From the sequence record PV805633.1: a stretch of DNA of 64,000 bases. One strand, written 5' to 3'. The notes under the pieces were generated by a model. That model did no database searches. It was not told the DNA's origin and was given only the letters and a program-made list of their open reading frames with translations. Source of the stretch: a phage. Position 1 is the first letter of the stretch. Every line of letters begins with the position of its first letter. Both the position numbers and the translations under genes were made by a program. Positions 5,737-64,000 of the stretch are shown one piece after another.

Positions 5737-6185
5737 GTGGCTCAAGACGCTAAGGAATATAAAATGCAACTGTTAACCGCCCGTGAATACCTGAAAGTAG
5801 ATATCGCTAACAACTATGGCTTAGACAAAAAGACATGGGATGAGCGTATTAGCTGGTTCGATGAGAACGAAGCTAACCTGCTCAATCTGGTAGATGAAGC
5901 TGAAGAATCTGCACTGTTCTACGCAGGTGTAAACGCTTGGAAAGATATGAAAGCTGGTAAGCCTATCGGTTATGCCGTAGCTCTGGATGCTACATCATCT
6001 GGCTTGCAGTTACTGGCTTGCTTGACTGGTGATCGTTCTGCTGCTGAATTGTGTAATGTAGTTAACTACATGGGCGAGAATGGTAAGCCATTACGACGTG
6101 ATGCTTATACAGTTATCTATCACAAGATGCTGGACATCCTTGGTGAATCATCCCGTATTAAACGTAGTGATACTAAGCAGGCCGT
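5737..6185 (+). CDS. phage RNA polymerase II large subunit, exon 1 (motif A)
   Basis: LDATSSGLQLLACLTGD matches T7 RNAP motif A; frame ends 2 codons into the insertion; RIKRSDTKQAV is the first half of motif B. Confidence 0.7.
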
Positions 6186-6991
6186 TAACCTATAAGTCAT
6201 GGCGGCCTTTAAACCGGGTGAACTCATGGAACATCCCTAGTGGACAATCATGAGCCAAGTTGGTAACGTAGAAAGCTCAATAAGGAGCATTCTATGTCAG
6301 AATTCAAAACGTGCAGTCGATGTAAAGAATTACTTCCTATCGAAGTATTCCCAGAGACTAAAAAAGCAATCACAGGACTCAAGACTAATTACGAGAATCG
6401 TTGCAGACCTTGCAAGGCTGCTGCTGCTCGTGAATGGCGTAAAAATAATCCCGGTTACACTGGAACTGGGATTCTTAAGGCAATACCGGAAGAGCATCGT
6501 AATGGTATTCAGCAGTCTCACTTAGACTGAGAGATGCAAAGAGCAGATGTAAAAAGCTCGGTAAGCCTATGCCTGATTGCACAGTAGAGTACTTATTTGA
6601 AATCCTTAAATCACAGGAATTCAAATGTGCTTTAACTGGTGCAACCTTAGTAATTGAGTCGGGACATCCCTTGTGTCTATCATTAGACCAGATAGAGCCA
6701 AGCAAGGGATATAGTATTGATAATGTTCAATGGTTAGCTTGGTGTGTAAACCGAGCAAAGGGTGACCTTTCTACCAATGACTTTATTGATATGTGTGATG
6801 CTGTTTTGAATAACCAAAAGGTGCAGAGACTATCGAAAAGCAGCGTAAGCTGAACTTAGTAGAGTAGGCCCAAGTGGGTCGAAGCGCCCGGCTAGACTAA
6901 TAGTCTAGATGATATAGTCCGAACTCACTGGTAACAGTGAGATGCAGGTAAAGCTGCTGGGGAAGATTAACGACCTTCCTTGAACATAATG
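6186..6991 (+). mobile_element. putative group I intron carrying an HNH homing endonuclease
   Basis: Splits motif B; exon 1 ends in T, intron ends in G; GCGGCC guide sequence about 16 nt in pairs with the exon end GGCCGT with U-G at the splice site; P7-like AGACTA/TAGTCC and S-like GATGATATAGTCCG; internal ORF has its own AAGGAG SD. Confidence 0.6.
6294..6853 (+). CDS. HNH-family homing endonuclease, disrupted by a 1-nt frame change near 6500-6510
   Basis: N-terminal CSRCK...CRPCK zinc ribbon (ORF 6294..6530); C-terminal LRLRDAKSRCKKLGKP...CALTG...SLDQIEP..GYSIDNVQW..CVNRAKG in another frame (open from 6503, ORF 6569..6853). Confidence 0.55.
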
Positions 6992-7787
6992 TATGACTGC
7001 ATTCTATGGTTCAGAAGCCAAGCCTAAAGAAGTATTCGGTGAAGGTATTCGTCTCAAGACTTTTGAGAATGTAATGGAAACAGTTGCTAGTGGACCTTGG
7101 GCACTGAACAAGTTCTTACTGCAATGTGGTGACCCGGATGCTAACCGTTACGTATGGATACTGCCTGACAACTTCCATGCTGTCATTAAGGTCATGGTTC
7201 CAGAAGTACAGACTGTTAACTTCTTAGGTAAGCCATTCGACATCACTCGTATGGTTCAGGGTACTGAAGATAAGACTCGTATGCTCTCTGCTAACATCAC
7301 CCACTCTATTGATGGAATGGTGGTACGTGAGATGCTACGTCGTTGTAACTTCAACATGAACCAAGTGAACTATGTTAAGCCCCTCTGTGAAGGAACCAGT
7401 GAGTATATGCTGGGTACTAGCGAGAACTACGACATGGTTAGTCAACTGTGGCATAACTATGAGAAATCAGGATTCCTGTCTACCCGTATCTTTGATTATC
7501 TGGATTCTGACTCAATTAAACTGGTTGATACAGATGTAATCATGGCTATGCTTAATACCATGCCTAAGAAACCATTCCCTGTAATGACCGTACATGACTG
7601 CTTCCGTTGCCACCCTAACTACGGTAATGACTTGCGTCGTCAGTACAATCAGATTCTGTCTGACATTGCTAAGAGTGATCTACTGGGCTTCATCCTGTCT
7701 CAGGTACTGAGACAAGAGTTCTCTGCTGGTAAGCTGGATGACAGCCTCTGGCAGGACATCCTTGAAACGGATTATGCATTAAGTTAA
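6992..7787 (+). CDS. phage RNA polymerase II large subunit, exon 2 (motifs B and C)
   Basis: MTAFYGSEAKPK matches T7 MTLAYGSKEFG; VHDCF matches T7 motif C IHDSFG; exon 1 + exon 2 = about 414 aa, close to N4 gp16. Confidence 0.7.
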
Positions 7788-26512: not shown

Positions 26513-26796
26513 TGACTAAGCTCTCCGGTGGTCTTAATAACTACTATGTAGTTTTAATTAAAAATCCCCAACGGAAAGAGCAAGAGCCATATCAAGCAGA
26601 GTGTGAAGATATTATCCAAGCACTGGGCATGACCTTCGATGAAGGTTGTGCCTTTAAAGCTCTATGGCGAAATGCTGCTGCCCGTATGGGTAATGGTAAA
26701 CCAGGTAACTCTTCGGTGTACGACTCAGAGAAGATTGTGCATTATGCCAATCGAATATTGAAAAAGGCTTACAATGAAAGTAACCAACAACCATGA
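26512..26796 (+). CDS. hypothetical protein
   Basis: ORF track. Confidence 0.5.
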   Translation: MTKLSGGLNNYYVVLIKNPQRKEQEPYQAECEDIIQALGMTFDEGCAFKALWRNAAARMGNGKPGNSSVYDSEKIVHYANRILKKAYNESNQQP

Positions 26797-46119: not shown

Positions 46120-48074
46120 TTAAGGCATTTTCACATACCCAGGTATGCCTTGGGCTTGGCGTATATACCGTATAGCACGCTCCTGGTTTTCTTTCTCAGC
46201 CTCCCGATCTACGGAAGCCTGTGATCGAAAGTTACGAGGAGCCAGGTTTTGCGGATCAGCCTGTACCTGCCCCTGAGCATTTTTAAGCATTGCAGCAGCT
46301 CTAGCAACAGCCTCCTGTCGTGCAGGTAACAGTGCAGTAAGTGCAGTCTGACCTGTAGCAATCTTATTTGGGTGTTTGACAGTGCAGCTACGGCAGCATC
46401 ATATGCAGTCTGTGCTGCCTGAATATTCTGCATAGCCTGAGCACGACCAAGGTTACGTACACTTGCTTCAAGGGGTTCACCACGTTTTAACCCCTCAATC
46501 ATTTGGTCTACCTGACGGTCATTAAGTCGCAAGCCATTACCGGCTTCTGGGGTTTGCCCTATAGTTAGATAATCAATAAGACGTCCTGTATTACTTTCCG
46601 GTACGTTAGTCATTGCACGTTGAACAACAACACCTGCCATAGCAGGAGATACATTAGCACGCTGAGCAATATCATTGATACGAGCCACAACCCATTGTTT
46701 ATCTGCCCCCTTAAAGTCACCCTCTAGTAATCTGTTAGCAACTTCCCCAACAGTAGAAGTGTCATTTAAGGCAGGTAAATAATCAGGAGCAATACTTCCA
46801 GCATTGTCCTCCATAGAACGAGTACCAATCATACCGGTAGCCAGAGTAGATACTGCCTGATTACCTTGGTTATTCTGAACCATAGCTAGTGGGTCAGCCC
46901 CTACTTCAGCTTGGGCAATAACAGGTTTCATCTCTTCCCAAGTCATATCCTTATAAGCACCTGGAGTAGAGTTAGGCAGAGCAGCCCAAGTATCTTTAAG
47001 GTTACCGTTCTTACGGGCCTCGAAGATAGCCCTACCAATCTTATCCTGGTTCTCAGGAGAAAGAGGCTGGCTTTGCCAATCTGGACCAAGAACTTTAGGA
47101 GCGAAGTCTAGCAGAGTAGCTTGGTTAATCTGGAATGCACCAACAGGAGAAGCACCCTGCTTCGACTTCATACTATCCTGATGCTTAATTACATCACCAA
47201 TACTCATTTGAGTAATAGGAGTAGATGTACCAGCAAACTGGTAAGTAACATCATAAGGAGAACCCTGACGAGTACCAGCAGTACCTGGGGCAGACGTAGC
47301 ACCAACATTGTTACCGTAAACACCCGGATATGCTCGTGCAAGCATTTCCTGCAAACGTGCCTGTGCAACCGGAGACAGATGCTTACTATAAGATTCTGCC
47401 AGAATACGGGCATCGTCAGCATTCTCAGCACCACGAGTAATCAGTGCCATTACCCCCGTAGCAGCCTGACTATCAGCATCATTACGTTGAGCAACACCTA
47501 AATCAAAACGATTCTGTGCCTGATTAATAGCCTGACCACCCTGACCTTGAAGACGACTCAGCATGTCCAATTGCTGGTCAGCAGGGAGTGCAGACAATGC
47601 ATCACGGGTCTGACTTAATGCAGCATTAATACGGTTCTGGTCACCCGACTGATAAGCCTCAGACAGCAAACGAATAGCAGGGGAAGCATTATCTAATGCA
47701 GTGTTAGTATCCCGTAAACGATCAAAGTTATAAGTATTGTAGTCATTGGTTCCCTGCTGACCTTGTTGAGTCAACAGTGTACCTGCTCGCTCATCAAGGT
47801 TTTGGAGGGTACGCTGGTTTATCAATGAAGGGTCAACCCCCTGAAACAGTGCACCAGATGCCAAAGCATTGCGGTACTCAGTAGGGTCTTGGTACTGCAT
47901 AGCATTCATCATGACGGCATTGCCAGCCTCCTGCTTGGCAGCGTTCTGGAAATTACCCAGTGCATCACTTAAGCCGGAGGTGGCGTTACCAATCATGCTA
48001 CCAAATGTGCGAATGCTGTCACCAACTCCAGAGAAGTTAGGTGCATCAACATTTCTCCACGTTATCTGAGCCAT
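46120..48074 (-). CDS. virion structural protein (N4 gp51/52-like), with apparent 1-nt frame change near 46366-46372
   Basis: ORF track 46209..48074 ends in Leu-rich out-of-frame sequence; alternative frame gives a plausible Ala/Gln-rich tail ending at 46120 just before the terminator. Confidence 0.5.
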
Positions 48075-57926: not shown

Positions 57927-58427
57927 CTATTCAAAAAGTTTACGGTCAGCCTGAATTTGCTTACCCAACTCAATTAGTTGGTTGTCACGGAGTCTAACAG
58001 TTGCCCGGAGTTCTTCAACCAAACGTCTGCCTTCTTCAAGACTGTTGTCGAGTCTGGCTGCATGGCTTGCAAGACTTCTGCACTCAAGGGTTCCGGCTTC
58101 GGCTTGACGTTTATATACCGATGCTCGTCTTTCAGACTGTTGCATCCGGCTGTCGTAATCACTGCTAACGCGAGCAAGCTCGCTTGCGTAATTACTCTCA
58201 GCCGTCTGCAACCGGGAAGTAAGTAACCCGACTTCATAACTATGGTTTCTTTGGAGAGCATTGTATTTGTCCTGTAGTTTTTGTGTTGCCTTCTGGTCTT
58301 CAACCTTTTGAGCATCCCATCTCTTTTGGACAGTAGACTGTCCATTGGAATTGCCCCAAAAGTAAATGGTGGCCCCGAGGACCACCACCAGAAGATAAGG
58401 CCAACCTTTAGAGATTAGCATCTTCAT
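57927..58427 (-). CDS. i-spanin (Rz-like)
   Basis: N-terminal [17 protein letters not shown] then coiled-coil periplasmic domain; start set at internal Met. Confidence 0.55.
57974..58237 (-). CDS. o-spanin (Rz1-like) lipoprotein embedded in the i-spanin gene
   Basis: Alternate frame inside i-spanin; signal peptide with lipobox-like TAGC; Pro-rich mature region. Confidence 0.5.
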   Translation of the reverse strand: MKSGYLLPGCRRLRVITQASLLALAVITTAGCNSLKDEHRYINVKPKPEPLSAEVLQAMQPDSTTVLKKADVWLKNSGQLLDSVTTN

Positions 58428-59042
58428 TACATGCCTCCAGTGGTACATTACCGATTCGGTTAGCTACCCAACCATACGTAAAGTCTGGCATGTTCAATGA
58501 GGTGTAGTGGTTCAATTGTTTAGCATCAAGCAACTTAATCATTACCTGACATGCTGCAACTTTGCCTCGTTTTTTCTGTAATGCTTTATATGCATTAACA
58601 GTACCTGCACCGACTTTACCATCAACTTGTATTTTAGGGTAGTCTTTGCCATCACGGGACATTTCATTAAGGGATTGCTGCAACCACTTAGCTGGTCTGG
58701 TTACACCGGTATTAACACCAGCATCAACCAGTTTGTGTGTTACAGCAGGAGATATATCAGCGAAGGCTACGAAGTTAGGCTTAATAACGTAGTCATCAAT
58801 GTATATCTCAGCAGCCATTTCTTTCGATAAACCCTTCATGGAACCATCCCAACCATACTCAGTAGCCAGAACTTCTTTGTGAGACTTAGCTACTGATTGG
58901 GTAATACCATGATTGGTTTCCCCACCTGGGTCACGAGGATTGTTTACGTACCCCCTTCCATATAGAACACTGCCCCCAGAATAGCAGCGATAACTCCTCC
59001 CACCGCACCCCCTTTTGCAGCAAGTTTCTGTTTAGCTTTCAT
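58408..59042 (-). CDS. SAR-endolysin, GH108-like N-acetylmuramidase with PG_binding_3-like C-terminus; apparent 1-nt frame change at a G5 run (plus strand C5 at about 58951-58955)
   Basis: ATG-initiated MKAKQKLAAKGGAVGGVIAAILGAVFYMEGG stops 4 codons after the run; downstream frame continues GYVNNPRDPGGETNHGIT...DGKVGAGTVNAYKAL. Confidence 0.55.
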
Positions 59043-59292
59043 GGGAATCTTCCTTTGGATGGAAACGTATTAGTCTGCCCACAATGTTTAAGGCAAACAG
59101 TGCGATTGTAATACTGGAACCATGTGGAATATCTTCAAGGATGTGACGTGGTAGTCCTGTTAGCATTGGTTGGATAATATCTACTGTAGAAAACAGAATT
59201 AATCCAAATGCACTAATCTGAACAGATGCCCACTTCCAGGACTTCTTCCAGTTAGGAACTAGCCCTATTTTTCTTTTTAGCTTGCGAACCAT
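59032..59292 (-). CDS. holin-like two-TM membrane protein
   Basis: ORF track 59032..59358, start set at internal Met; two hydrophobic helices; stop overlaps endolysin start. Confidence 0.4.
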   Translation of the reverse strand: MVRKLKRKIGLVPNWKKSWKWASVQISAFGLILFSTVDIIQPMLTGLPRHILEDIPHGSSITIALFALNIVGRLIRFHPKEDSHES

Positions 59293-59609
59293 GCGAATAT
59301 CTCCCGTCTTGCAGCAGCCAATACACCAATAATTGCACCTGCCCCAGCCCATACCCACTTACCAAAAATCCCAGCACCTGCAACCTTATGTTTGATGGTG
59401 ATGAACTCTTCAATGGTAGGTTCGGACTTAGTGATGCTCTCCTCTACCCGTTTAAGTCGGGTACTGAGGTCACCCATAGACTCGCTTAGCTTTTTAATAG
59501 ACTCTTCCATTTTCTCCCTATCCCTCGATTCACGAGTTTGGTTTTCGAAAATGTTTCTCAGTCTCTCTTCAAGTCTGGCTAGAGTTACGTTATCTGGTTC
59601 ATTTCCCAT
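59277..59609 (-). CDS. coiled-coil protein with C-terminal TM (lysis accessory candidate)
   Basis: ORF track; C-terminal GAGIFGKWVWAGAGAIIGVLAAA. Confidence 0.4.
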   Translation of the reverse strand: MGNEPDNVTLARLEERLRNIFENQTRESRDREKMEESIKKLSESMGDLSTRLKRVEESITKSEPTIEEFITIKHKVAGAGIFGKWVWAGAGAIIGVLAAARREIFAWFAS

Positions 59610-59854
59610 AGGGATTTTCTCAGGTTAGTTAAGTCGTAATTGACTAAAACAGTCTACCTAATGACTTGTTTTTGGTACAACAAAACCCACCCCCGCAACC
59701 TAGTTGGGCTGGTTAAAGCCTGAAATATGGAACAGCAGTCACCAAAACAACAAAGACCATACTTAGGATTGAGACAACCATATGGGTGGCTATATGCGTA
59801 TAATATTTTTAGGGAGCAAGTATACACCTGCTCCCCGGAGCTATCTCAGAGCCA

Positions 59855-62395
59855 TCAGAACACAAAATCCAGTTGCATAAGCTGCTTCAACTGAATCTGC
59901 ACGGTACTATCCTGGGTTACTTCCGGAACAGTTAAGCCAGAAACACCGATTGCAAAGTCCGCAATGAACCCGGTAGTAGGATTCCTTACTATATCCGCCC
60001 CAGTACCCCCAGAACCTGTACTTGCAAACTGAGTCTGCTTAGAACCAAAAGCATTACCTGTACCTGCAATAACTAGTTGCCATACACCCCTGCCGAGCGT
60101 ACCTGGAATACTCAAGCTACCTGAACCAGCAGCACGGAATATCTTGGTATTCTCATAGAACATACACTCTTGCAACGTGCAGGTACTTCTCTGCCCGGTA
60201 CTCAGTACCTGATTACCCTGGAAGCTAAAGTTAGTCTGGTCATTCAGAACGAAGTCGCAGAGCATGGATGCTTGCAACTGCACGTTCATATCCAGAGTGT
60301 TGGCATGTGCAATCAGGGACTTAGGAATGCCTCCAATACGATAACCGGGGGAGCGGTAGTTCAGGTTCAGCGTGTTCAGTTGCTTAATACTGTTACCCAC
60401 CAGCTTAACGGTTTGCCCACGATATACTTCAGTTGCGTTGGTGCCGGCGTTAATCATGACACCTTCTGCTTTATTGCTGGCGGTTAAGCACTTAAGCACT
60501 ACAGTATTATGACTTACGTCAATATCCTGGTACACCTGGTATGCGCTATCGCCACCTCCAGTTGATATAGCTACCCCATCAAAAGCTCTAAGCTCGCAAT
60601 AGTTGTTGTGAATCTTAACAAAGGGGTTCGGATACGTCGCTGCCGTAGCCTCCCCACCCCCACCTACATCGATGCTGCGGGTGTACCTGCCGCCCGCAAG
60701 CGGACCGGTACTGGTACTATCCGGAATATCCCTGGAGCGCACATAGTTGTTAGAGATTATGAGGTTATATGGTTCATAGTTTGGGTGCCAGCCTGAACCA
60801 CATTTAGCGTAGATACCGACTACGCCATGCTCCAGGCAGAAGTTATCAGTGATAATTAACTGACCCCCACCGTGAAAATCGATGCATTTTCTACGGCAGT
60901 TAAAAACGAAATTGCGGCTGGCTGTTATGTTGCGTATTCTCCTGTTTCTACCATGTCCGATGCCATAGCCAGGGTCAAAGGATGCATTCAAATCATCAGC
61001 ACCGTTCGGGTGTCCGATGTTGCTAATTACATTATCAAAGTAGCCCATTTTGTAGCCACACAGAACACCTATACCGTTTGAGTAACAGTTGGTTATTGTG
61101 TTCTTTGAAATAATAATACCTTCTGGAACATCGCTTTCATTTGGGTAGTCCGCCATGTCCGGTGAGGCAATATTTCTTATGCCAATCCCAACACCTGCAT
61201 AGTTAAAGCCAGATATCTTACACCTTTCAACGGTTATATTTTTACAAGCTCTTTGAATCTTAACACCGCAACTCCAGCTGCCAATATACCCGCCAAGAAA
61301 AGTACCCCAACTGCTTTGGTAGCTTCCTGTTGGATTACCCGCACTGTCATAGGATGGGAATTGTCCGGACACCTCATTAAATGCCCCTGTGTTATAACTA
61401 GAGGTATCAACTGAGTTATTTGGTCCCAACACATTAACTCCACCGGCTGTATTGTAGCCAAATCGAGATTCTCCTTTCTCTGCATAACCAGTAGGCGCAT
61501 CTATAGCAGGGAACTTGTTAGGGCCACGCACTGTTACAGACACAGTCACGTTCCGGCAATTTACAAGGGCAAGCCCATCCAGTCCGTGCGTATTCACAAT
61601 TATAGTGCCGTTGGAGATACGAATACCTTCCTTATTTACCAGTGCCAGACACGGACTGTAGTTACGTGTACCGTCGCTGAAGTCAGGCTCAGTAGGGTAC
61701 GTAGAAGCCAGTGCAGGATTTTTCGAACTAAATACGTCTTCCCGCCTAAATCAATATCTCCAGTGGTGGCGTCGAAACATGCCTGCACTGCCAACGTATC
61801 GTCGGCAACGCCATCACCAACCGCCCCCCCATCCACGTGGATCGCCATTATCACGCCAGCGAGCCATTTGTAGTTCGGGGTATTTTGTTGCACCTTCAGG
61901 GTCTGAAATCTGTCCTCGTAGTACCGCATCCCCAACACTCACCCAAGCACCCAGACCAACGCCACCAGAAGTTTCGGGGGTTGAATCAGCAGGAACCTCT
62001 TTAGGTAATGCTCCATCCCAACGGTACTTACCATCAGTGAATACAACCAGTTCATTCTTAGTATTAACTGTTACACCAGTAGCAAATGAACCAGGTAGGG
62101 TTACATACTCTTCACGAGCAACAGCCAGTGCACCTAAGTCCACACTACCAGCAGAATGAACTAATACTCCAGCAGGGCTAAGACTTACAGCAGTAACCCC
62201 TGAACCAATATCAGCAGGTAAGGAATAAGCACGCTGTGACGCTTTGTCATAAATGACTTTGTAACCAGTAAGCAGAGCACCCACTGAGAAGTAAACAACT
62301 TCCGATTGTTTAACCCCAAAGTGACGGGCTACTGCTTGTTTGTTGGTTAATATTCCGGTTGATCCTCTTCCACCTTGTGAGAATAATTCGTTCAT
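59855..62395 (-). CDS. tail spike with pectate-lyase-like beta-helix; apparently one gene split into three ORFs by two frame changes
   Basis: ORFs 61814..62395, 61636..61938 and 59855..61597 overlap in different frames; junctions near the T5 run at about 61719-61723 and in the 61815-61860 region; 59855 ORF frame stays open upstream of its GTG start. Confidence 0.45.
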
Positions 62396-62422
62396 GTAAA
62401 CCTCTTTGTTTTTCTATAAGAA

Positions 62423-62440
62423 ACTGCCCCGAAGGGCAGT
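62423..62440 (-). terminator. rho-independent terminator
   Basis: Minus strand reads ACTGCCC-TTCG-GGGCAGT followed by TTTCTTAT. Confidence 0.5.
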
Positions 62441-62444
62441 CTGT

Positions 62445-64000
62445 TTAGCCAATGGACATACGGGAGTTAGCGAAATCATACGCATCTTGCTTTTTAGCAA
62501 ACTGCGTTACGAAGTAGTCGCTGATACGAATTACACACCCGTTCGTTGACTGCAACTTAAGACGGCAAGTTCCTGCTGTTGCCGCCTGTCCTACACCGAA
62601 AGTATGCACCCATTCTCCTGGTGATGTGTATAGCCCCCCAAGAGGTACAGAATCCGCAATAGATGCCGTAACATCACCACTTACCAGTTTAAGACTGCAC
62701 CCCCATACAATCTGATAATACTGCGCTATGTTAGCCACTGGTTCACTCAAGAATAGGGTATATCCGGCAGGTATTACTAACTGAGCGCAAGTATCGCTTA
62801 ACACACCGTCAGTAACCGATGTGGCGTCTACGGTGCTCGTCCCGACAAACGCCCACGGCCCGCTCCCTGAAAAAGATTGTGAGTTTAGTACCGTACCAGT
62901 ATGTGGGCGCTTTATTCTTCCGTTCAGCTTTGTACCACGAAGTGACAAATCCAGGTTACTGGCCACAGTGGATGAAACACTCGCCACAGATTCAACGTGA
63001 ACCTTATCGCCGACGTAGCCACCTACGATAAGGTCGTGCGCAATAATCTGGCTTCCGTCGTCAACATTGATACTATACACACCAGTCGCGGCATCAAACC
63101 TACAGTTTTTTGCCACCAGGGTAGAGCTTATCAGCTCAATATTGTTAAAATGGCACCCTTCCGCAACAGTTACCGGAACATTCTCTATTTTTAACTGTCT
63201 CGGGGTTTGCGGAACCCCGTCAACAGTTACTGTGTCTGCGGTGGCTACCAATTCGAACCATACGTTGCTGATAGTGGGCGGTACGACAGGAGCCAATCCA
63301 TTGCCTTTAAAATAAATACCGCCACCAGGGCATGCCTCAATGATACAGTCACGAATTGCTATGCCGTCAAGACCACCACCAGGAGCAGGACCTCCGACAG
63401 CGCCATTAAGGTAAATGCTGTACGTATTAATTCCTGCAAAATGGCAATCCCTCCATGTATCAGCCCCGACATGCATGCCTGGGTCTGATACCGCCATATG
63501 GCCGTAATTACACGCCAGATAGCTACAGTGTTGGTACGTGTTGCCGATGTTTCCTTTCGGCTTGTAAAATCCAATATCAAGACCGTCAAAGGCAATATCC
63601 CTAAAGTTCCATCGGCCATCAAGATTAGATGATCCAAAAGCTATGCCTGTACCAACAGGGGTGGTTATGTCCCCTTCGATGAGGAAGTTCTGGGCGTGCC
63701 GATACTGCCACAGGCGGGAAGACTCGGTTAGAGTTAAACTTGTTTCCCCGGAGGATGGTTTAAATTTTACCTGATAACCAGTACCAATTATGTTGGCATT
63801 TCCCGATGTGTATTGCCCCGTGTAAGTACCAGGAGTGACCAGGAGATCATCTCGCCATCCAGTTGCATCAATAGCATCCTGTAAGTCTAAGTAATTACCA
63901 GAATGTTTAATATCATCAAGATTGTCAGCAACAGTTCTCGTCCCATGACCAACGGATGCAGAACCAGTTGTCTGTGAATAGAAGTCCTTAACTTCAGCGA
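62445..64000 (-). CDS. second beta-helix tail fiber/spike protein, 5-prime partial (runs off window)
   Basis: ORF track 62445..63497; frame stays open upstream of that Met for at least about 70 codons. Confidence 0.45.
   Translation of the reverse strand, partial: AEVKDFYSQTTGSASVGHGTRTVADNLDDIKHSGNYLDLQDAIDATGWRDDLLVTPGTYTGQYTSGNANIIGTGYQVKFKPSSGETSLTLTESSRLWQYRHAQNFLIEGDITTPVGTGIAFGSSNLDGRWNFRDIAFDGLDIGFYKPKGNIGNTYQHCSYLACNYGHMAVSDPGMHVGADTWRDCHFAGINTYSIYLNGAVGGPAPGGGLDGIAIRDCIIEACPGGGIYFKGNGLAPVVPPTISNVWFELVATADTVTVDGVPQTPRQLKIENVPVTVAEGCHFNNIELISSTLVAKNCRFDAATGVYSINVDDGSQIIAHDLIVGGYVGDKVHVESVASVSSTVASNLDLSLRGTKLNGRIKRPHTGTVLNSQSFSGSGPWAFVGTSTVDATSVTDGVLSDTCAQLVIPAGYTLFLSEPVANIAQYYQIVWGCSLKLVSGDVTASIADSVPLGGLYTSPGEWVHTFGVGQAATAGTCRLKLQSTNGCVIRISDYFVTQFAKKQDAYDFANSRMSIG

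Follow-up and report, generated by a model that had tools for sequence, protein, structure and literature searches.

A gp63.1-type tail spike gene in the record of a G7C-like podophage, probably split into three reading frames by homopolymer miscalls

Described spikes and the genomic setting of the locus

In phage G7C the tail spike gp63.1 (YP_004782195, PDB 4QNL) is trimeric and is docked onto gp66 by its attachment module, and its C-terminal part is an O-antigen deacetylase (esterase). A second type of gp63.1, in which a depolymerase-type beta-helix follows the conserved N-terminus instead of the G7C esterase, has been described for the phages Alt63, N4G2 and Sz33 (bioRxiv 10.1101/542787; review PMC10743462), and in these papers it appears as a normal full-length protein with no split mentioned. 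Recombinant full-length Alt63 gp63.1 degrades the O-polysaccharide of E. coli 4s, N4G2 and Sz33 carry the Alt63-type gp63.1 (bioRxiv 10.1101/542787), and the hosts of the latter two, E. coli 4s and 4sI, both bear an O-antigen. Infection by Alt63 is strictly O-antigen dependent.

The window, i.e. the whole stretch of 64,000 nucleotides analyzed here, belongs to a G7C-like podophage of the N4 type (Gamaleyavirus), of whose genome it covers the left 64 kb. It shares 95.6% nucleotide identity with phage G7C over 24 kb, is collinear with it from base 1 on, and the G7C proteins correspond to it gene by gene. Between the homologue of gp63 (59280–59609) and the homologue of gp66 (ending at 62445), in the position of the G7C tail spike gene 63.1, lies a locus on the minus strand (59855–62395, 2541 nt as written) which is occupied by three overlapping open reading frames (ORFs). 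On the evidence set out below it is one gp63.1-type tail spike gene of a G7C-like N4-type podophage. The gp66 homologue itself (62445–64000, minus strand) is listed by the ORF finder with 350 aa from 63497; no stop closes its frame before the window ends, and the gene therefore runs past base 64000. Elsewhere the window lacks the HNH endonuclease genes gp15.1, gp24.1, gp41.1 and gp47.1 of G7C, and of gp41 only the first 85 of 156 residues are present (site 26757–26773 versus 26781–27571 in G7C); these differences are clean cases of presence or absence and not frameshifts.

In length (846 aa after the repair described below versus 851 aa) and gene position the window spike resembles G7C gp63.1, and the N-terminal ~170 residues are 68% identical. 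Past residue ~174, however, no sequence similarity between the two proteins was found, the deacetylase of G7C being replaced by an unrelated beta-helix. Linker, cap and the complete beta-helix body are instead shared with the spike of the Kayfunavirus Peacock (QEG09711, 900 aa), an intact single ORF whose N-terminus is a T7 gp17-type tail adaptor, whereas that of the window spike is a module of the gp63.1/TSP type. With TSP1 of CBA120 (PDB 4OJ5) and the Kuttervirus tailspikes the window spike shares the N-terminal domains including Tail_spike_N, while those spikes carry other catalytic bodies and belong to myovirus branched-spike complexes with four TSPs. The likeness to Alt63, N4G2 and Sz33, i.e. 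a conserved N-terminus followed by a depolymerase-type beta-helix, is drawn from the published descriptions; by analogy, the window spike may be an allele of Alt63 gp63.1 with its activity.

Upstream of the gene, between the gp66 homologue and the tail spike, a terminator-like hairpin (ACTGCCC-TTCG-GGGCAGT followed by TTCTTAT; 62423–62440, minus strand) was found, and an equivalent hairpin between genes 66 and 63.1 belongs to the published G7C set (bioRxiv 10.1101/542787). A further hairpin (GGGAGCA...TGCTCCC, 59812–59835, minus strand) without a T tract lies directly 3' of the tail spike stop codon, and the G7C annotation places 16-bp repeats on either side of its gene 63.1. By analogy, such hairpin or repeat elements may delimit an exchangeable module.

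Reading frames, intact homologues and repair

ORF prediction and three-frame translation of the minus strand revealed three ORFs which carry consecutive parts of one tail spike, as the earlier note had proposed. The first of them, ORF A (62395–61814, 193 aa), terminates in ...ISDPEGATKYPELQMARWRDNGDPRGWGGGW*. ORF B (61938–61636, 100 aa) is one base out of phase and includes ...HVDGGAVGDGVADDTLAVQACFDATTGDIDLGGKTYLVRK..., and ORF C was listed with 580 aa from a GTG at 61597 to 59855, its frame being open already from 61750. In the three-frame translation the first frame could be followed from the ATG at 62395 as far as ...DPRGWGGGW*. After a run of G the conserved reading is shifted by one base and goes on as GAVGDGVADDTLAVQACFDATTGDIDLGGKTYLVRK, and after a run of A the first frame resumes as NPALASTYPTEPDFSDG... 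and is kept down to the stop codon at 59855. The earlier note had placed the junctions near a T5 run and in a region with a C7 run of the plus strand; the frame changes indeed coincide exactly with these runs, G7 (61824–61830) and A5 (61719–61723) in the sense of the gene.

According to these borders the gene as written comprises an N-terminal virion-attachment region (piece A, 61831–62395), the G7 run with one G more than the G6 of intact homologues, a middle piece of ~35 codons (61724–61823, AVGDGVADDTLAVQACFDATTGDIDLGGKTYLVR(K)) forming the cap at the beta-helix start, the A5 run with one A fewer than the A6 of the homologues, and a 622-residue body (piece C, 59855–61723) with the beta-helix and a C-terminal beta domain, ending at TGA 59855–59857. 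The G7 run shifts the frame by one base and the unshifted frame meets a TGA (61814–61816) 4 codons further on; the A5 run, separated from the G7 run by 100 bases, restores the original frame. Thereby the middle piece is conserved solely in a frame that differs by one base from that of pieces A and C. The ORF borders are misleading at two places: the sequence HVDG preceding GAVGDG in ORF B is an out-of-frame translation of the end of piece A and is absent from the real protein, and the conserved reading of piece C begins as early as position 61723 in the A run, the GTG selected by the ORF finder lying ~125 nt further downstream. Within any gene of the 64-kb window the G7 run is the sole G/C run of at least 7.

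The alignment with intact tail spike homologues suggested in the earlier note was carried out and set G6 and A6 in the homologues against G7 and A5 in the window. G6 and A6 were found in all four intact homologues which were read as DNA, namely the tail spike gene of Escherichia phage Peacock (annotated, 900 aa), a metagenomic gene with an 89% identical product (L006), and two copies of another gene with a full-length, 78% identical product (L007, L008). Three further viral contigs (L009, L010, L011) run through both junctions in a single frame, and more than 20 full-length database proteins of 800–950 aa span both of them (for example P0002, 78% identity at 100% coverage). Since the three pieces correspond in order to successive stretches of intact tail spikes, a chance pattern is ruled out. 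The search for an independent copy of the exact allele, i.e. window-type flanks with either G6 or G7, gave no hit among viral, metagenome and genome contigs.

Removal of one G and addition of one A resulted in a single ORF of 846 codons plus stop without internal stop codons. The earlier note had expected a product of about 90 kDa, and the computed mass of the repaired protein is 89.7 kDa. Together with the homologues, the 846-aa repair bears out the assignment of the three ORFs to one tail spike. Compared with the Peacock spike the repaired protein gave 1041 bits and 67% identity over 746 aa, the alignment being gap-free at both junctions. Peptides spanning the junctions in the repaired protein are GWGAVGDGVADDTLAVQ... 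and TYLVRKNPALASTYPTEPDFSDGTR, and furthermore GWGAVGDGVADDTLAVQACFDATTGDIDLGGK and KNPALASTYPTEPDFSDGTR. As written, attachment module and receptor-binding body are not united in a single polypeptide; after the repair they are, and we judge the broken chain to be an artefact of the record.

Codon comparison with the closest homologue, the metagenomic gene L006, revealed 18 identical, 14 synonymous and 4 non-synonymous codons among the 36 between the two runs, and 99 synonymous against 44 non-synonymous changes in the body. Change between the runs is thus mostly synonymous, and selection has therefore maintained the very frame that the record shows shifted. Beyond the two indels the gene shows no sign of decay.

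Expression signals were found at the first start codon. A Shine-Dalgarno-like AAGAGG (62401–62406, minus strand) lies 5 nt upstream of the ATG at 62395, and the calculated duplex with the 3' end of the 16S rRNA amounts to -6.5 kcal/mol at this ATG versus -1.7 kcal/mol at the GTG of piece C (61597). Among the three pieces only the first ATG has a good ribosome-binding site; none was found where pieces B and C might start, and the first start codon of piece C would drop ~40 conserved residues. Promoter and terminator matches within the gene were not in excess over shuffled sequence.

Origin of the two indels

We consider it most likely that homopolymer miscalls, i.e. sequencing or assembly errors and not mutations, have split one ordinary tail spike gene. 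The part which we infer is that the indels are errors and not real. In favor of miscalls are the intact homologues with G6 and A6 and the clean repair, as well as the lack of any decay besides the two indels and the lack of translation signals for pieces B and C. Further evidence comes from the behavior of the G run in other records, from other 1-nt frameshifts in the window including that of the essential endolysin, and from the literature on N4G2- and Sz33-like phages, which suggests a flow-sequenced source.

With respect to the first of these, four near-identical Enterobacter phage records (L001, L018, L019 and L020), all of them heavily frameshifted, give the length of the G run as G5, G5, G5 and G6, and the run is demonstrably a site which error-prone sequencing miscalls. 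These public Kayfunavirus records belong to the Enterobacter phages MII_004, 03/02_vB_Eclo_IJM and MII_002, and in them the tail spike homologue is broken into 6–10 'hypothetical proteins' by many 1–2 nt indels, so that they look like uncorrected error-prone assemblies. As intact references these Kenyan records were dropped, being full of frameshifts themselves, and were kept only for the miscalls of the G run.

Comparison with the relatives unveiled three more 1-nt frameshifts at short base runs in the window. The homologue of the endolysin gp61, an N-acetylmuramidase of 211 aa in G7C, is distributed over 58944–59042 and 58408–58974 (minus strand) by a 1-nt deletion at a G5 run (58950–58954) where G7C has GGAGGG. 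Residues 1–31 are found in one frame and residues 23–211 in another, so that the N-terminal membrane anchor and the EGGY catalytic motif come apart; the earliest in-frame start is the Met at 58839. Since a viable lytic phage cannot lack its endolysin, at least this frameshift almost certainly arose in the record and not in the phage. In St11Ph5, an Ion-sequenced relative whose gene 63.1 differs (1908 nt), the endolysin is intact, and this phage was rejected as the source of the window. The homologue of the virion protein gp51 (46129–48074, minus strand) is frameshifted at ~46369, leaving ~80 C-terminal residues out of frame; the window reads CCCAAATAAG where G7C has CCCAGAATAAG, and the G7C-like C-terminus continues in another frame down to 46129.

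The third frameshift lies within an insertion of ~804 nt (6188–6991) in gene 16 (RNAP2, gp16; 5764–7787, plus strand). If the insertion is removed, gene 16 encodes a 405-aa protein with QAVMTAFYGSEAK, and in this respect the window matches N4G2 and Sz33, for which a spliced group I-like intron of ~800 bp in g16 with the same junction peptide, QAVMTAFYGSEAK, was described (bioRxiv 10.1101/542787). The 3' part of the insertion is 75% identical to a region of the Achromobacter phages JWAlpha and JWDelta, which likewise carry an endonuclease between two halves of the RNAP2 gene. Compared with the 186-aa JWAlpha protein YP_009004717, the endonuclease ORF of the window is divided into two halves (6250–6525 and 6569–6853, plus strand) by a 1-nt frameshift at ~6505, which could reflect decay of a homing endonuclease or another miscall. 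A search of the whole window against Rfam gave no match at gathering score, neither to a known recoding element nor to a gene-16 intron family.

We infer from this circumstantial likeness that the window derives from a phage like N4G2 or Sz33. The genomes of these two phages were assembled with Newbler from Ion Torrent PGM reads, a method known for errors in homopolymer length. Most likely the two indels stem from errors of a flow-type sequencer (Ion Torrent or 454) in base calling or assembly, and virions of the phage would in that case bear a normal tail spike of 89.7 kDa.

Several points speak against miscalls. The 11.2-kb virion RNA polymerase gene and most of the other genes are intact, so that the record is not generally poor, and the frameshifts in structural and lysis genes all fall within the late region at 46–62 kb. 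Furthermore, one over-call and one under-call are required, whose compensating signs would be coincidental. The link to N4G2 and Sz33 is circumstantial.

The main rival to miscalls is that both indels are real mutations and that the tail spike is a recent pseudogene, having arisen for example after passage on a host where the spike is dispensable. Only the 193-aa (20 kDa) N-terminal fragment would then be made and the phage would rely on its gp66 homologue. Both indels are, after all, present in the sequence as given, and homopolymers are natural hot spots of slippage as well. The pseudogene would nevertheless need two independent indels 100 bases apart in a gene of 846 codons which is otherwise undamaged and shows a strong synonymous bias, and the second indel would bring no benefit because a TGA follows within 4 codons of the first. 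For the same reason, i.e. the TGA met within 4 codons of the G run in the unshifted frame, a compensated frameshift yielding a functional variant was rejected. As to the spike being dispensable, St11Ph5 infects rough mutants at low efficiency, indicating that recognition of the O-antigen is not always obligatory in the group, whereas Alt63 strictly depends on it and the closest described phages share its gp63.1 type. Moreover, the broken essential endolysin would be intolerable to a viable phage, which makes an error extending over the record the simpler explanation. Taken together we regard the pseudogene as unlikely.

Much less probable still is that the indels are real and are bypassed, either by recoding (+1 at the G run and -1 at the A run, by slippage of the ribosome or the RNA polymerase) or by variation of the run lengths within the population, which would switch the spike on and off. 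In the receptor-binding genes of Campylobacter phages, polyG tracts do switch expression on and off, and no gene of the window contains a longer G/C run than this G7. Recoding would also give the right protein: skipping one G leads to ...GWGAVGDG..., and a tRNA-Lys moving back by one base on CGA-AAA-A leads to exactly the homologous ...VRKNPAL.... However, the incoming frame at the A run is GTT CGA AAA ATC and offers no X XXY YYZ heptamer in register, each message would require two separate low-efficiency events, and the arrangement is not conserved, all seven of the independent homologous loci of good quality being in frame. The runs are also far below the length of known tracts for transcriptional slippage or phase variation; a phase-variable polyG would be represented by a G7 tract only and would additionally need the indel in the A run to restore the frame. 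Programmed recoding is therefore very unlikely. That G7 and A5 are real in the phage stock, with the spike made conditional by double recoding or by run-length variation within the population, is scarcely to be expected; if true, the phage would toggle its O-antigen depolymerase on and off, and the host range of an N4-type coliphage would be controlled in a manner resembling phase variation.

Finally, three independent products (e.g. an adaptor, a small protein and a separate enzyme) can practically be dismissed: the ORF finder does offer a possible start codon for each of the three ORFs, but pieces B and C have no ribosome-binding site, internal promoter and terminator matches are not in excess, all homologues unite the three parts in one chain, and piece B covers the first turn of the beta-helix, for which no independent fold is expected.

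Architecture of the repaired spike and its meaning

The repaired protein was analyzed with respect to its domains. Residues 91–156 were assigned by Pfam to Tail_spike_N (PF18668; E 3.5e-25, 88.3 bits at a cut-off of 25). The PDB sequence search matched the N-terminus to G7C gp63.1 (4qnl, residues 1–165, E 1e-71) and to CBA120 TSP1 (4oj5, residues 1–204 to 1–206, E 3e-82), while in the body it gave no match, the N-terminal region alone being recognized. The N-terminal ~165 residues represent the conserved attachment module of a gp63.1-type spike, and the remaining ~680 residues a swapped-in beta-helix module, presumably for receptor binding and depolymerization.

For the body an AlphaFold2 model of the 622 residues of piece C was obtained (pLDDT 81, pTM 0.86), which displays a right-handed parallel beta-helix with all-beta coils followed by a C-terminal beta domain; the right-handed beta-helix is the fold associated with polysaccharide depolymerases (PF12708/PF13229). 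The best PDB matches in the fold search were phage tailspikes, namely Dettilon gp208, Sf6, HK620, LKA1 gp49 and APK14 gp49, all of them weak matches with E values of 1e-5 to 1e-3 and TM scores of 0.3–0.4. These tailspikes cleave O-antigens or capsules. The earlier description of the spike as pectate-lyase-like holds at the level of the fold, as judged by AlphaFold2 and the fold search; at the level of sequence families it does not, no Pfam pectate-lyase or beta-helix model exceeding its cut-off on the protein (PF12218, the only model listed besides Tail_spike_N, reached 18.9 bits at a cut-off of 26.3). Some of the homologues have a weak precomputed match to PF13229. According to the model, piece C is presumed to be the O-antigen depolymerase and receptor-binding part, and piece B alone, as the first turn of the beta-helix, would not fold by itself. 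The body module is common to T7-like Kayfunavirus phages of E. coli and Enterobacter and also occurs in a Salmonella Kuttervirus.

The consequences concern mainly the annotation, which should combine the three ORFs as a single tail spike gene or mark them as frameshifted, and corrections of the record are due at the tail spike, the endolysin (58950–58954) and gp51 (~46369). Since this gene determines the host range of the phage, its listing as three hypothetical proteins would hide the receptor-binding protein. The split is most probably not a biological feature, and the gene belongs to an ordinary, well-described class. What the locus does offer is a clear case of tail spike module exchange among N4-type, T7-type and Kuttervirus phages, a process already well documented for this group.
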